Below are positions 10,532-29,617 of a stretch of 64,000 bases of DNA, piece after piece (position 1 is the stretch's first letter; each line of letters begins with the position of its first letter). This DNA comes from a virus (lineage: Duplodnaviria; Caudoviricetes), in the IMG/VR virus record IMGVR_UViG_2974682767_000001, positions 5,898 through 69,897 of that record; one strand, written 5' to 3'. The position numbers were made by a program, and so were the translations under genes. Under the pieces are notes generated by a model, which was given only the letters and a program-made list of their open reading frames with translations, was not told where the DNA came from and did no database searches.

Positions 10532-10948
10532 ATGGCCCGCGTGACGGCGCGCGTCGAGATTGACGACGCCGCCCTGGAACGCGAGTCGGGCACGCACCTG
10601 CGGCGCAAGCACCGCAGCATCACCCGGCGCATCGCCAACCAGGCGCGGGCCGACGTGCCCGTCCGCACCGGCAACCTCGGTCGGACCATCGGCGAGCTGC
10701 CGCAGGTCTACACCCCGTACCACGTCAGCGGCGGCGTGGAGGCGACGGCGGACTACGCGGCGGCGGTCCATGAGGGCAGCCGACCGCACTACATCCGCGC
10801 CCGCGCTGGCGGCGCGCTGCGCTTCATGTGGAACGGCCAGGAGACGTTCCGCCGGTCGGTCTGGCACCCCGGCACCCGGTCGCGCCCGTTCCTGCGCAAC
10901 GCCGGGCAGCGCATCATCCTCACCGACCCCGACGTGCGGATGACGTGA
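10532..10948 (+). CDS. HK97 gp10-like tail completion/neck protein
   Basis: PVRTGNL.RTI...ADYAAAVHEG...PFLR motif. Confidence 0.65.
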   Translation: MARVTARVEIDDAALERESGTHLRRKHRSITRRIANQARADVPVRTGNLGRTIGELPQVYTPYHVSGGVEATADYAAAVHEGSRPHYIRARAGGALRFMWNGQETFRRSVWHPGTRSRPFLRNAGQRIILTDPDVRMT

Positions 10949-11000: not shown

Positions 11001-11636
11001 ATGACTCAGCCGCAGATGACGCCGCCCAACGACGGCGCAACGCCCACCCCCGTCCAGCCACTCACCGACGCCGAGCGCGCCGCCGCCACCGCGCAGGTCG
11101 CCGGGACCGCGATGCCGTCGCAGCCCGAGCAGCCGACCCCGGTGGCCCCGCCCGCCCAGCCGACGCAGCCGACACCGCCCGCGCAGCCGACCCCGGTGGC
11201 CGACCCGCCCCCGGCCCCGAGCGACAGCCAGGTGGTCAACGAGGTCGCATCGGACGAGCCGGGCACCGAGGTGGCGGCGGTGGAGGACGGCAACGTCGTC
11301 GCGCTCGCCGACCGTTTCGACGTGGCGACCTCGGGCGAGCTGTGGCCGCACGGCACGGTGGAGTTCAAGGGCGACACCCTCGGCATCCGGCTGCCGACCC
11401 GCCAGGCGCTCGCGGCGTTCTCGCTGGCGTCGTCCAAGTACGTCAGCCTCCAGGTCAAAAACGACCTCACCGGCCTGTTCATCGCCCGGCACCTGTCGCC
11501 CGAGTCGTATGGCCGGGTGTTCTCGCGGCTGATGGACCCCGATGAGGACAGCTACGACGTGGAGACGGTCGGCGAGCTGTTCAACGTCATCGTGATGGCA
11601 GCCGTGGACGCGGACAAGGCCGACGACGCCGGGTAA
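11001..11636 (+). CDS. tail assembly chaperone (no frameshift partner visible)
   Basis: Immediately upstream of tape measure; Pro/Gln-rich N-terminus. Confidence 0.65.
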   Translation: MTQPQMTPPNDGATPTPVQPLTDAERAAATAQVAGTAMPSQPEQPTPVAPPAQPTQPTPPAQPTPVADPPPAPSDSQVVNEVASDEPGTEVAAVEDGNVVALADRFDVATSGELWPHGTVEFKGDTLGIRLPTRQALAAFSLASSKYVSLQVKNDLTGLFIARHLSPESYGRVFSRLMDPDEDSYDVETVGELFNVIVMAAVDADKADDAG

Positions 11637-11655
11637 TCACTGCACGGTGCGATAG

Positions 11656-18048
<6,393 letters not shown>

Positions 18049-25344: not shown

Positions 25345-25989
25345 GTGACCGCCACCGTCTGCGTTGCCGAGAATCTGGTTATCGGGCCAGACGGTCAGCT
25401 ACGCCTCGCCCCGTGGTCGCGCCCGCGCCTCGTCGTGGACGTGCTCGCGCCGTCGGGCGCGGACACCACCAAGCTGCTCGCCACCGAGACGCTGCCGGGT
25501 CGGCTGCTCATCGACCGGCGCGTGGAGTGGATGAACGACAGCCCCGTGGATCACATGGTGCGCGTGCTCGTCACCCGGCGGTGGCGGCGGTGGGTCACCT
25601 CGAATCCCAACGCTATCGAGTTCCGCGACCGCTGGTCCTCGGCCATCACGCCCGCCGACGCCACGCAGGCCATCGAACCCGCCGAGCCGGTCGTGTCCGG
25701 CTACTACAACAGCCAGACCGGCAGCGCCGGGGACATCGGCACCAACAGCGTGGCCGAACCCCAGCCGGGCAAGTTCTGGCACTGGTGGGGCACCAACACC
25801 GCCGAGGAGTGGCTGGGGCCGGTCGCGCCGGGTGCCACGCTGCGGCTGTGGTATCGCGGCTACGTGTGGACGCCGGGGCCGTTCTCGGACAACGCCAACA
25901 AGAACAGCCCCGCCCATGAGGCCGAGGCCGGTTGGTCGCGCATCCAGCTCATGGCGTTCCCCGACCAGGGCAAGGCGGTGACCGGGTGA
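25345..25989 (+). CDS. minor tail protein, paralog 1 of 3
   Basis: TAGGCT 6 nt before GTG; N-terminal Cys motif shared with next two genes. Confidence 0.7.
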   Translation: MTATVCVAENLVIGPDGQLRLAPWSRPRLVVDVLAPSGADTTKLLATETLPGRLLIDRRVEWMNDSPVDHMVRVLVTRRWRRWVTSNPNAIEFRDRWSSAITPADATQAIEPAEPVVSGYYNSQTGSAGDIGTNSVAEPQPGKFWHWWGTNTAEEWLGPVAPGATLRLWYRGYVWTPGPFSDNANKNSPAHEAEAGWSRIQLMAFPDQGKAVTG

Positions 25990-26585
25990 GCGTGAAAGTC
26001 TGCACCGCCGAGTACATGATTTCCGACGTGCGCGGCCTCGGCGTGGCGCGCACCTGGCTGCCGCGCATCGTCAGCGAGCAATTCCTGGAGTCCACCAAGG
26101 ACGGCGAGATCAAGCTGTCCCCCGACCCCGTGACGATGATCGACGGTGACCTGACGTGGTTCAACAACAGCCGGGACCCGCAGCGCATCGGCGTCTCGGT
26201 CCACCGCGCCCCGCGCATGATCGTGGCGCAGTCGCCCAGCACCGTGGTCATCCACGACGCCTGGTCCCACCAGGTCGGCGTCAGCCCCGAGGCGGACTAT
26301 CCCTCGGTCATCGCCGACACGTTTGGCGGGCGCATCCAGATCGACCGCGCCAGCGTTGCGGCCAATGACATCCAGTTCGGTCGTTACATCCTGATCGGCG
26401 ACGACAGCACGCGGTGGGTGGACCTCGGCGTGGTGCCGCCCCGGCAGTCGTTCCATTTCCGCTACATCGCCGCCGTGCAGACGCCGGGCACCTGGACGCT
26501 GCCCGGCACCGACAGCGACGTGGTGGGCCGGTGGGAAGCACATGCGCGCTGGACGCGCCTGACGGCGATGGCGGTGCCCGCATGA
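25986..26585 (+). CDS. minor tail protein, paralog 2 of 3
   Basis: GTGA overlap; MSVKVCTAEY. Confidence 0.7.
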   Translation: MSVKVCTAEYMISDVRGLGVARTWLPRIVSEQFLESTKDGEIKLSPDPVTMIDGDLTWFNNSRDPQRIGVSVHRAPRMIVAQSPSTVVIHDAWSHQVGVSPEADYPSVIADTFGGRIQIDRASVAANDIQFGRYILIGDDSTRWVDLGVVPPRQSFHFRYIAAVQTPGTWTLPGTDSDVVGRWEAHARWTRLTAMAVPA

Positions 26586-27343
26586 CGAACCCGACCCCCT
26601 GCGTGGACCCGCTGCATTTCGAGGTCACCGAGGACGGGGCCATCCGGCCACAGCCGTGGATGCAGTGGCGGCAGGTGGACTCGGCCAGCGTGCCGTCCAA
26701 GGCGGGCAGCTACGGCGTGACGCTCCAGTCGGCGGGCGTCGGCGGCGTGGAGGTGTTCGGCACCCTCGGGTCGCTGTTCGGTTCGCTGTTCTCGTTCATC
26801 CCCGGCATGTTCGGCTCGTCGTCCATCCTGGCCGGGCTGGTGTCCTCGGCGTCGGCGGGCGGCAACAAGAACGACCTGTTGCACCAGTTGACGCGCACCT
26901 GGACCAACGACACGCCCGTGGCCCAGGACGTTTACGGCCTCATCACGCGCGGCGGCTGCCGGGTGTCGCTCCAGGCGCGCAGCCGTGGCGGGCTGGTGCT
27001 GTCGTCCGGCTACAAGGTCGGCGTGCTCGGCGACCCCGGCCCGCTGGTCCCGGCGTCCATGTTCGGCGTCGGGGCCGACCTCGGGCGCGGCGGCACCCTG
27101 GCCATCGGTACGACGTTCTGCGTGGCCGAGGAGCGCATGAACAGCGTCACCATCCCCCTCGCGCCCGAGCGCACCGGCTGGGCGCGGCTGCTGCCCGGCC
27201 AGTCCATCACCGCTCGGGTGGAGCTGCGGTTCGTGTCCGAGTTCTGGGAGAACACCACGATTGACGGCGGCGACACGGGGTCCGAGTCCAGCTATGAGAC
27301 GGGCGACACGCGCCTGGACCTGTACGCCGTGCCGGTACTGTAG
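26582..27343 (+). CDS. minor tail protein, paralog 3 of 3
   Basis: ATGA overlap; MTNPTPCVDP. Confidence 0.7.
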   Translation: MTNPTPCVDPLHFEVTEDGAIRPQPWMQWRQVDSASVPSKAGSYGVTLQSAGVGGVEVFGTLGSLFGSLFSFIPGMFGSSSILAGLVSSASAGGNKNDLLHQLTRTWTNDTPVAQDVYGLITRGGCRVSLQARSRGGLVLSSGYKVGVLGDPGPLVPASMFGVGADLGRGGTLAIGTTFCVAEERMNSVTIPLAPERTGWARLLPGQSITARVELRFVSEFWENTTIDGGDTGSESSYETGDTRLDLYAVPVL

Positions 27344-27372
27344 CGGTCACAACCCCGACCTCGGAGGGTAAT

Positions 27373-27741
27373 TTGTACGACCCCACACCCGGCTATATCG
27401 ACTGTGAGTCCGACGGCGAGGACCACCCCACGCCGCCCGGCCACCCGTACCGCGAGCTGGATGTGCCGGGCGTCGGCGTCATCCATGCGCGCAAACCGCT
27501 GCCCAACGCCATCCCCGCGCTGGCCGGTGCCGCCAACGCCAAGGTGACGCCGGGCACCCGCATCGACCAGTTGGACATCTTCATCCAGAACCACGTCGCT
27601 GACGGCGAGTTCGAGGCGCTACTGGCGCGGATGATGGACCCCGACGAGGAGATGCCGCCGGACACCATGCTGCGCGTCAGCCGGGCGATTGCAACGGCGG
27701 GTACCGCCCGCCCTACACGGCGGTCATCAACCTCGCGCTGA
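27373..27741 (+). CDS. tail-assembly-chaperone-like protein (gpG-like), paralog of 11001..11636
   Basis: GGAGG RBS, TTG start; LLARMMDPDEE vs FSRLMDPDED. Confidence 0.65.
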   Translation: MYDPTPGYIDCESDGEDHPTPPGHPYRELDVPGVGVIHARKPLPNAIPALAGAANAKVTPGTRIDQLDIFIQNHVADGEFEALLARMMDPDEEMPPDTMLRVSRAIATAGTARPTRRSSTSR

Positions 27742-28049
27742 TGGCCGCGCACAACTGGCGGGCGTTGCGCACCCGCGCGCTGGACAAGGGCATCGCCGAC
27801 CTGATGGCGGTGTCCTCCATGCACGTCGTGCTGGACCTCATGGAGCAAATCGGCTTGGAGTCGGTCACGGTGGACGCCAAGACCAAGGCCGAGGCGATGG
27901 GCAAGGTGCGCAGCTACTACGACAAGCTGTATAAGCCAGACCCCACCGCAATCGCCGTCAACGGCGGCGAGGTCGGCCCGCCGCCGGGCTGGTCCGACGA
28001 GGAGGTGGAGGCGTCGTTTGATGCGTTCCTGTCGGCAGGTGGCGGCTAG
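27741..28049 (+). CDS. gpT-like ORF in the -1 frame, candidate frameshift extension of 27373 gene
   Basis: Frame open and GC3-biased from at least 27711; ends PPPGWSDEEVEASFDAFL. Confidence 0.6.
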   Translation: MAAHNWRALRTRALDKGIADLMAVSSMHVVLDLMEQIGLESVTVDAKTKAEAMGKVRSYYDKLYKPDPTAIAVNGGEVGPPPGWSDEEVEASFDAFLSAGGG

Positions 28050-28078
28050 TTGCGCCCGAGCACGATACCCTGACCACT

Positions 28079-28486
28079 ATGGCCATCGTCGCCGTCCTGA
28101 TGGACACCAACGCCGAGCCGGGGGAGAAGCTGGACCCCGCGCTGCGGGCCGAAATCGAGAAACTGGCCCCCGGCCTGGAAATCGGCGAGGTCGGCGAGTC
28201 CGAGCTGGCCGACAACGCCGTCACGTCGCCCAAGATCAAAGAGGGCGCGGTCCACACCGAGCACATCGCCGAGGCCGGGGTGGAGGCCGTCAACATCAAG
28301 GCGGGCGCGGTCGGCACCGCCGCGCTGGCGGGCGACTCGGTGACCGGGGCCAAGGCCGGGGCGGGCGTCGTCACCGCCAAGGACCCCGCAGGCAACTACA
28401 TCGAGTCCGAGGAGTGGCACGGCACCGCCGCCCAGTTCGCGCAGATCAACCCCCGCAACCCCAACGTCACGTACTACGTCACCTAG
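28079..28486 (+). CDS. minor tail protein with 10-aa AV/GAV repeats
   Basis: NAVTSPKIKEGAVHTEHIAEAGVEAVNIKAGAVG; TACCCT 7 nt upstream. Confidence 0.7.
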   Translation: MAIVAVLMDTNAEPGEKLDPALRAEIEKLAPGLEIGEVGESELADNAVTSPKIKEGAVHTEHIAEAGVEAVNIKAGAVGTAALAGDSVTGAKAGAGVVTAKDPAGNYIESEEWHGTAAQFAQINPRNPNVTYYVT

Positions 28487-29617
28487 ATGCCGGTCTATCG
28501 CGGCACGGGTCCGCTGGTCAAACAGGTGTACCGGGGCGACACCCCGGTGCGCCAGATTTACCGTGGCAACACCCTGGTGTGGCAGCGGTCGGTCGTGTCC
28601 GACGGGTTCGACTGGGATGGCTGGCTGGACAATTGGATTAACGAGCTGTGCAGCGGCGAGGACCTTGGCGACCTCATCAGCGACGGCCTCGGTGGCATCG
28701 TGGACGGCATCGGCAACGTCGTCGGTCAAACCGTCTCGTTCGTAGAGGGCGGGGCCAACGGCGTCGGCACCCTGGTGGCCCGCACCGGCACCACGCTGGT
28801 GGACGCCTACTGCGGCGCGTGGGGCGGCACCTCGCCGCCGGACGGCCTCATCGGTCTGGTCAACGGCATCCCCATCATCGGCGGGTTCCTCGCCGACTGG
28901 CTGGAGGGTGACCTGGACATCACCAGCATCATCGGCAAGCTGCCGGTGGTCGGCAACATCGCCAAGCAAATCGGCCTCATCCCCGACGACCTCGGCAACC
29001 TGCTGGACCCCATCAACTACGTGATTGACGAGGCGGGCAACGTCCTCGGGACCATCACCTGCGGGAAGTACAAGAACATCGGCGGTGGTGCCCTGGAGGG
29101 CATCTGCTACGTCATCGGCGTGGTCAACCACGCGGCGCGGATGATGGTGCCGGACGGCCTGCTGAACCTGGACCGCCAGGTGGGCCGGATGCGCCACCCC
29201 AACCTGTTGCCCTCGGACGACGGCTGGCTGGAGGTCCAGGTGGCCGAGGCAGGCAGCCCCGGCATGGCCACGCAGGTGTACCGGCGCTACGCCAACGACG
29301 GCAGCGGCGCGCGGGGCGTCGGCATCCACATGGTGGACAACATGGCGGGCATCGTGCGCCGCGTCGGCGGCGTCGAGACGGTCGTGGCCCCCAACCTCGG
29401 CGGGTTCGGCCCGTCCTCGCGGCTGCGGCTGGAACAGCTCGGCAACGTCCACACGCTGCTACGCGACGGCAACCCCATCGGGTCGTGGCCGGACAACACC
29501 GGCACCGCCGCCTCGGGCGCGAACAACCGCAGCGTGGCGATGGTGATGAACGGGGCTAAGGAACTGTGGGGCGCTCGGCGTTTCTCGCCGTCGCTGAACT
29601 ACCTGGAGGCGGGCTGA
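28487..29617 (+). CDS. minor tail/receptor-binding protein
   Basis: VYRG...QIYRG...VWQ N-terminus typical of fibre tips; last gene of tail operon. Confidence 0.7.
   Translation: MPVYRGTGPLVKQVYRGDTPVRQIYRGNTLVWQRSVVSDGFDWDGWLDNWINELCSGEDLGDLISDGLGGIVDGIGNVVGQTVSFVEGGANGVGTLVARTGTTLVDAYCGAWGGTSPPDGLIGLVNGIPIIGGFLADWLEGDLDITSIIGKLPVVGNIAKQIGLIPDDLGNLLDPINYVIDEAGNVLGTITCGKYKNIGGGALEGICYVIGVVNHAARMMVPDGLLNLDRQVGRMRHPNLLPSDDGWLEVQVAEAGSPGMATQVYRRYANDGSGARGVGIHMVDNMAGIVRRVGGVETVVAPNLGGFGPSSRLRLEQLGNVHTLLRDGNPIGSWPDNTGTAASGANNRSVAMVMNGAKELWGARRFSPSLNYLEAG

Follow-up and report, generated by a model that had tools for sequence, protein, structure and literature searches.

A putative programmed -1 ribosomal frameshift in a displaced pair of tail genes of a Cluster-B-type mycobacteriophage

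The gene pair and its surroundings

The stretch of DNA analysed here (the window, 64,000 nucleotides) comprises bases 5898-69897 of a virus record of 69,897 bp. Of the 517 phage records that match its region 27000-28500, Knocker is the best, with 82% identity; 493 of them belong to Mycobacterium phages of the Bclasvirinae (Cluster B). Judged from its sequence, the window phage is a Cluster-B-type mycobacteriophage. Two overlapping open reading frames are found on the forward strand of this region. ORF1 (27373..27741, + strand) starts with a TTG, 4 nt downstream of the Shine-Dalgarno sequence GGAGGG (27363..27368, + strand), and its 0-frame product of 122 aa ends in ...GTARP followed by TRRSSTSR, with the TGA stop codon at 27739-27741. 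ORF2, as it would be annotated (27741..28049, + strand), codes for 102 aa between an ATG and the TAG at 28047-28049. When the -1 frame is read from position 27714 (27714..28049, + strand; 111 aa), it yields YTAVINLAL and then the DUF7240 region up to the same TAG, and the predicted fused product (27373-27714 plus 27714-28046) has 225 aa. An earlier note on this DNA had read the pair as a frameshifting tail chaperone pair of the gpG/gpGT type, displaced downstream of the minor tail genes; the codons, frames and ORF coordinates given there all proved correct on rereading of the window. After GCC CGC CCT (27706-27714), the 0 frame continues with ACA CGG CGG TCA TCA ACC TCG CGC TGA, with a GC3 of 5/8, and the -1 frame with TAC ACG GCG GTC ATC AAC CTC GCG CTG ATG, with a GC3 of 9/9. 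The switch in codon bias described in the note is therefore real, but the distance of 30 nt to the ATG is not, as the T of the slip codon (27714) lies 27 nt before it.

ORF1 matches the complete model (positions 1-114 of 114) of the Pfam family PF23781, Phage_TAC_16, with an E value of 1.3e-42 and 144.8 bits, as well as PHROG 915, and ORF2 matches PF23888, DUF7240, with an E value of 2e-41 and 140.9 bits; both scores exceed the curated cut-off of 27 bits. PHROG 941, a family of 233 positions, spans both ORFs, with positions 1-117 on ORF1 and 127-227 on ORF2, which was a first hint, at the sequence level, that both might form one protein somewhere. PF23781 ends at ...ARP and PF23888 begins at the annotated Met, and since the latter model starts there, it lacks 9 junction residues. 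The split annotation has been inherited by both models, and the conserved junction peptide Y.AVI.LAL (27714-27740; fused residues 115-123) is left unmodelled by Pfam even in proteins that are encoded in one frame.

The gene for the tape measure protein (11665..18048, + strand; 2127 aa) was recognised by homologues annotated as such. The pair at 27373-28049 does not lie between the major tail protein gene and this gene, where a G/GT pair is expected, but among genes of the distal tail that code for DUF7172, tail-fibre-like and minor tail proteins, with neighbouring fibre-like and minor tail protein genes at 28079-29617. This displaced position is common to all relatives. Two to three consecutive DUF7172 genes precede the pair, both in the window (25345-27343) and in the two metagenome relatives with an in-frame gene (947-2972 of loci L003 and L004); this run looks like a conserved paralogous array of minor tail genes.

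A paralogue of ORF1 directly precedes the tape measure gene. This proximal chaperone gene (11001..11636, + strand; 211 aa) codes for a Pro/Thr/Ala-rich N-terminal extension followed by Phage_TAC_16 at residues 90-204, and lacks a T extension. It matches PF23781 (E 8.9e-38, 129.1 bits) and PHROG 1118, 'tail assembly chaperone' (E 1e-59). The likeness of the ORF1 protein to this chaperone, which had been noticed by eye, was borne out, since both match PF23781 and BLASTP aligns them with 27% identity over 85 residues (E 2e-7). Likewise, a T frame is absent from the usual place, as the note had claimed: the stop map of the proximal gene has -1 stops at 11543 and 11666 and +1 stops at 11593 and 11653, which leave no room for it before the tape measure gene starts at 11665. 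The N-terminal extension of the proximal protein (window 11001-11270) consists of about 90 low-complexity residues rich in Pro, Thr, Ala and Gln, with PTQPTP-like repeats. It is not present in the distal paralogue, ORF1. Three lower matches of the protein search (P0119, P0129 and P0153) are built in this way too, with an extension before TAC_16.

Two further observations were made in the proximal region. In Cluster B1 phages, a reverse-strand gene lies between the proximal chaperone gene and the tape measure gene (L036 1826-2203; gene 27 of Quisquiliae), and the corresponding position of the window (~11640-11660) holds only a gap of 28 nt. In addition, the window has a 138-aa gene at 10532-10948 whose homologue in Funsized (gene 28, L035 1108-1524) is annotated as a second 'tail assembly chaperone'. 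The window gene matches PHROG 5, tail completion/Neck1 (E 1e-15), and no chaperone family, and the label on the Funsized gene is probably an annotation slip, as far as the sequence match tells.

Frame switch, slip site and hairpin

Loci of relatives were drawn from GenBank phages, IMG/VR contigs, prophages in Mycobacterium genomes and metagenome contigs. Relatives in which the gene is split as in the window span the subclusters of Cluster B, Gordonia phages of the genus Sourvirus, the M. abscessus prophage prophi79-1, harman, the Rhodococcus phage ReqiPine5 and metagenomes. In about 40 distinct split relatives, conservation of the 0 frame ends with ...G(T/S)ARP and conservation of the -1 frame begins at the very next residue, with Y.AV. 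The stretch ...AIAT.G(T/S)ARP is conserved in every one of them. Beyond the Pro, the 0 frame reaches a stop after 2-10 codons, with unconserved endings such as TRRSSTSR-stop, T-stop, TKP-stop or FGPSR-stop. The -1 frame, unconserved up to this point, shows Y.AV(I/V).L......W-R from the codon right after the Pro. Its Leu codons vary synonymously between CTC, CTT, CTG and CTA, changes which in the 0 frame would give S, L, W or a stop. When 28 distinct split relatives were compared column by column, the T of CCT proved to be the exact point at which third-position variability changes from the 0 frame to the -1 frame. Upstream of it, the three codon positions of the 0 frame have mean column entropies of 0.40/0.47/1.11, and downstream of it, those of the -1 frame have 0.55/0.31/0.76. 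Both halves are under purifying selection down to about 37% identity. Conservation of the overlap across relatives, one of the checks proposed in the note, has thus been confirmed, as the frame switch was found in all split relatives.

Conservation of the -1 frame upstream of any start codon, as expected of overlapping G/GT reading frames, is most evident in OrangeOswald, harman and ReqiPine5. In these three lineages, the -1 frame is open across the slip point and contains no ATG, GTG or TTG for 30-43 codons past it. The conserved block W-R..R...G..DP lies within this start-less stretch and is therefore unreachable from a start codon of its own. The annotated starts of the downstream ORF are placed 30-46 codons past the slip in ReqiPine5 (gp35, L033 1302-1469), OrangeOswald (gene 40, L028 753-989) and harman (L031 720-1004), and for this reason the deposited downstream proteins lack the conserved N-terminal block. 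In the Acadian-type lineage (Acadian, L002 2204-2212; L021; L023), a stop codon ends the 0 frame two codons past the slip (CCT ACC TAG), so that the short product ends in ...ARPT, and an annotated 'intergenic gap' of 20 nt is really coding in the -1 frame.

The slip site itself reads CGC CCT ACA (27709..27717, + strand). In all split forms CGC CCT is invariant, the Arg being always CGC and the Pro always CCT, whereas in-frame relatives use CGC, CGG or AGG, then CCC, CCG or CCA, and then TAC or TAT; the split form is therefore one base shorter. The C that precedes CCT, which would be needed for re-pairing to CCC, is never lost in split forms. In the window, the site (C CCU ACA) does not follow the X XXY YYZ heptamer pattern, just as the note had stated; the only site that forms a canonical heptamer is that of ReqiPine5, C CCU UUC. 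We infer that tRNA-Pro re-pairs from CCU to CCC and that it is the only tRNA able to re-pair. Since an ACN codon in the A site cannot do so, the efficiency of the slip may be low.

Of the two slip candidates that had been proposed, the boundaries of conservation point to CGC-CCT (27709-27714), and GGG-T (27699) was rejected. At the latter (27699-27702), G(T/S)ARP of the 0 frame is conserved beyond the site, and the residues that the -1 frame would encode before PY vary (YRP, QCA, HRP, HCP and others). Transcriptional slippage needs long homopolymers and was considered unlikely because the C run has only 3 nt. As for an upstream stimulator, the G-rich stretch that ends 10 nt before CCT does not differ between split and in-frame forms, since it codes for W/A-G, and a Shine-Dalgarno-like role for it is not supported.

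Downstream of the slip site, a putative stimulatory hairpin (27720..27748, + strand) begins 5 nt after the slip T, with a stem of 12 bp (27720-27731/27737-27748) and a loop of 5 nt; its 3' arm contains both the ORF1 stop and the ORF2 ATG. RNAfold predicts such a hairpin, of 12-13 bp, in every split form. In 25 distinct sequences, 94.7% of the cells are paired, compensatory double changes occur at 6 of the 12 pairs (G-C in 15 and C-G in 10 sequences, for instance), and none of 500 shuffles reached the observed covariation. At least 10 of the 12 pairs are formed in 39 of 39 distinct split forms versus 3 of 17 in-frame forms, the mean being 11.5 versus 8.8 (in-frame range 7-11). The stem of the window by itself is modest, with one A-C mismatch, -16.6 kcal/mol and a z value of -1.7 versus shuffles, and it is on the comparison across relatives, not on this stem alone, that the case rests. 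A covariation-supported structure is thus found within the 5-9 nt downstream that are usual in -1 frameshift cassettes and, if CCU is taken as the A-site codon, the spacer of 5 nt would match the usual geometry. A search against Rfam found no family within 27300-28200.

In-frame relatives and the proposed explanation

A length-relaxed search retrieved two metagenome proteins of 222 and 224 aa in which both Pfam domains are encoded in one frame, with the junctions ...GTARPYTAVINLAL (P0004) and ...GTARPYSAVIQLAL (P0003). The junction peptide that had been the first choice of the note, ...ARPYTAVINLAL, is exactly what these natural in-frame homologues encode. An exhaustive HMMER search of 1.84 billion representatives gave about 50 clusters of ~200-240 aa with the whole query in one frame, together with ORF1-only and ORF2-only clusters. 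In an alignment of 32 in-frame clusters, GTARPY.AV...L....W-R is the most conserved stretch; the frameshift therefore falls inside the core motif of one family of ~220 aa and not in a linker. The pattern used for the metagenomes contained the Tyr and thus returned in-frame forms only.

Split and in-frame forms also differ in their initiation signals. A GGAG/GAGG core within 20 nt upstream of the start is present in 39 of 39 distinct split forms versus 2 of 17 in-frame forms, and many in-frame genes begin right at the stop of the upstream gene with no Shine-Dalgarno sequence. One of the two in-frame exceptions that carry such a core, L003, is nested inside the split clade. Split and in-frame states are intermingled in a maximum-likelihood tree built from 87 full-length sequences; parsimony gives 11 changes of state, at least 7 of which are forced by well-supported branches, and the change always occurs at the same nucleotide. 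In 4-5 phylogenetically independent contrasts, the hairpin and the Shine-Dalgarno sequence always differ in the same direction, with a sign test that is not significant at this number of pairs (p >= 0.125). Five in-frame phages carry two TAC_16 copies, one proximal to the tape measure gene and one distal, 16-23 kb apart. In the one such phage examined, the proximal copy abuts the tape measure gene and no T ORF was found beside it. The conserved architecture is therefore a short proximal chaperone plus a distal long form, which, by analogy, agrees with paralogues that share out the roles of gpG and gpGT.

An AlphaFold2 model of the fused protein, built on a 32-row alignment, is mostly helical (pLDDT 92, pTM 0.82) and has a helix at residues 115-127 that spans the junction. 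When the full-length model was compared with BFVD, it matched annotated tail assembly chaperones of SilentRX (194 aa; TM 0.58/0.65) and Lilbeanie (211 aa; 0.56/0.59), an unnamed 236-aa protein annotated as tail assembly chaperone (E 8e-8) and, more weakly, the long frameshift-type chaperones of Muddy, Bipper, LilSpotty and Kubed. The top matches of the N-domain (residues 17-113) in VIA-align, YqbN (3klu, Z 3.2) and the HK97 chaperone (2ob9, Z 3.1), are weak and lie below the reliable level. Foldseek found no PDB match at E <= 0.001, and the PDB sequence profile search gave nothing relevant. For the C-terminal half, no matching solved structure was found by the PDB profile, Foldseek and VIA-align searches, and the ESM Atlas returned only its own DUF7240 clusters plus the weak leads Phage_Gp15 and DUF5361 (scores 0.81-0.86). 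A function like that of gpG/gpGT is likely, by homology and fold to annotated proteins. The chaperone role is thus suggested by the naming of the family and by the likeness of a predicted fold to proteins whose functions are themselves predictions. As to the analogy with G/GT drawn in the note, the family of the N-terminal domain and the full-length fold match speak for it; it has to be qualified in that the shift would occur inside the core motif and not in a linker, and in that many relatives have the long form only.

We consider a programmed -1 ribosomal frameshift at C-CCU in the 27373-28049 pair to be very probable from the sequence comparison, and an explanation of the whole locus, in which one gene has two forms owing to a -1 slip and a hairpin and the long form resembles gpGT, to be highly plausible too. 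Most ribosomes would start at the TTG at 27373 behind the strong GGAGGG and make the 122-aa protein, which contains TAC_16 only. Some would slip back by one base, tRNA-Pro moving from CCU (27712-27714) to CCC (27711-27713), an event that the 12-bp hairpin 5 nt downstream would promote. These ribosomes would read UAC (27714-27716) next and go on in the -1 frame to 28049, giving a product of 225 aa with the junction ...GTARP-YTAVINLAL.... The long form would be the ancestral full-length member of an actinophage family of ~220 aa (TAC_16 plus DUF7240) and would most likely work like lambda gpGT, with the 11001-11636 gene supplying most or all of the short, gpG-like chaperone. The frameshift and the strong ribosome-binding site would together set a low ratio of long to short form. 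The reading of the pair in the earlier note thus gains support from the frame switch, the slip codons, the hairpin and the in-frame homologues.

Weak initiation appears to keep the long form at a low level in in-frame relatives, which suggests two routes to the same end, strong initiation with a rare slip or weak initiation of an in-frame gene; in this dosage reading, the former also yields much of the short form. We would go one step further only tentatively, since it seems somewhat less than an even chance that C-CCU and a hairpin that begins 5 nt after it form a minimal -1 signal with a single tRNA(Pro) that works in Actinobacteria and that, in this gene family, has been repeatedly exchanged with an in-frame version whose ribosome-binding site is weak, two paralogues 16 kb apart sharing the gpG and gpGT roles. 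Given such repeated exchange, the frameshift would act as an evolvable dosage device.

The frameshift could also be real and its product a paralogue recruited for another part of the tail, for example for the fibre-like and minor tail proteins encoded at 28079-29617. The gene has DUF7172, tail-fibre-like and minor tail genes around it, at a position conserved in every relative, and a dedicated chaperone already adjoins the tape measure gene. However, the N-domain and the proximal chaperone are members of one Pfam family, the full-length fold matches the long forms of tail assembly chaperones of other actinophages, and a gpGT-like function would otherwise be missing because the proximal copy has no T-like part, so that we regard this recruitment as rather unlikely.

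Two separate proteins could, on the other hand, be made with no recoding at all and assemble non-covalently, ORF2 being translated from the ATG at 27741 by termination-reinitiation at TGATG and the hairpin only masking this start until a ribosome translating ORF1 opens it. The ORF1 stop and the ATG overlap in TGATG both in the window and in most Cluster B relatives, and ORF2 could therefore be made independently there, minus only 9 residues. The ATG also lies in the 3' arm of the hairpin in these phages, and all GenBank records annotate two genes. We hold separate translation to be improbable: the -1 peptide before the ATG shows amino-acid conservation and does not differ from that of the in-frame homologues, three lineages offer no start codon over the first 30-43 codons, and the predicted junction is a confident helix. 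Moreover, the 0-frame stop wanders between 2 and 10 codons past the Pro and, in Acadian, lies 20 nt before the ATG, and the invariance of CGC CCT would be left unexplained.

Finally, a tolerated frameshift mutation in a decaying gene or a record that is one C short, which the difference of a single base in a short C run between split and in-frame forms might suggest, can be practically dismissed, since 520 independently sequenced phage records all match in two frames, both halves are under purifying selection to about 37% identity, the split state goes together with the hairpin and the slip codons, and an added C is not all that sets the in-frame forms apart (CCG TAC, CCA TAT, AGG CCC).

Significance and comparison with known systems

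Among the 520 phage-collection records that carry the pair, all of those listed annotate two hypothetical proteins. The literature search found no mention of Phage_TAC_16 (PF23781) or DUF7240 (PF23888), and the text of the PRFect paper contains neither 'cluster B' nor CCCU. Cluster B is among the largest clusters of mycobacteriophages, and recognition of the fused product would correct hundreds of annotations and the boundaries of two Pfam domains. If the proposed frameshift is true, long-tailed phages would have one apparent exception fewer to their near-universal G/GT rule. The locus would also offer a naturally replicated test of recoding, with a non-heptameric Pro slip and a covarying hairpin on one side and in-frame relatives mostly devoid of hairpin and Shine-Dalgarno sequence on the other. 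Nothing fundamental about how tails are built would change; the use for phage annotators is real and the interest for recoding research moderate.

Sites of -1 frameshifting other than heptamers are known, such as CGA AAG in cdd of B. subtilis and in IS1222. There, as proposed here, the shift hangs on the re-pairing of one tRNA, although the codon, the tRNA and the biological context are different. In the -1 cassette of E. coli dnaX, a slippery site is followed by a stem-loop (PMC5009743). The window likewise has a stable hairpin a few nt downstream of the proposed -1 shift. At the dnaX site, which is the heptamer A AAA AAG, re-pairing is in tandem and a Shine-Dalgarno-like stimulator lies upstream, and occupancy by a single tRNA during slippage has been proposed for it (PMC5009743). 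In the window, by contrast, only tRNA-Pro would re-pair, and the G-rich stretch upstream is the same in split and in-frame forms.

In other clusters of mycobacteriophages, -1 or +1 G/GT frameshifts have been annotated, as in Cluster A (PMC3585329) and Cluster F1 (PMC10793310). They share with the pair described here the host range, the assumed role and the expression from two frames, but they are annotated and directly precede the tape measure gene. For phages of Cluster B1, genome announcements report that no tail-chaperone frameshift was found (PMC10793310, 2023; PMC12352053, 2025).

The closest comparison is that with gpG/gpGT of lambda, a frameshift conserved in long-tailed dsDNA phages (Levin, Hendrix and Casjens 1993; Xu, Hendrix and Duda 2004, 2013, 2014; as cited in PMC5009743). 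In both cases, a short and a C-terminally extended chaperone would be produced from overlapping 0 and -1 frames, with a second ORF that needs no start of its own, an N-domain in a family named tail assembly chaperone, and a long form that is expected to be the minor one. Unlike in lambda, the pair of the window is located among distal-tail genes, 16 kb downstream of the proximal chaperone gene, the proposed slip site is C CCU and no heptamer, and the shift would fall within the best-conserved motif of the family. Moreover, the window has a frameshift-less paralogue at the canonical position, and many relatives encode the long form only, in a single frame.
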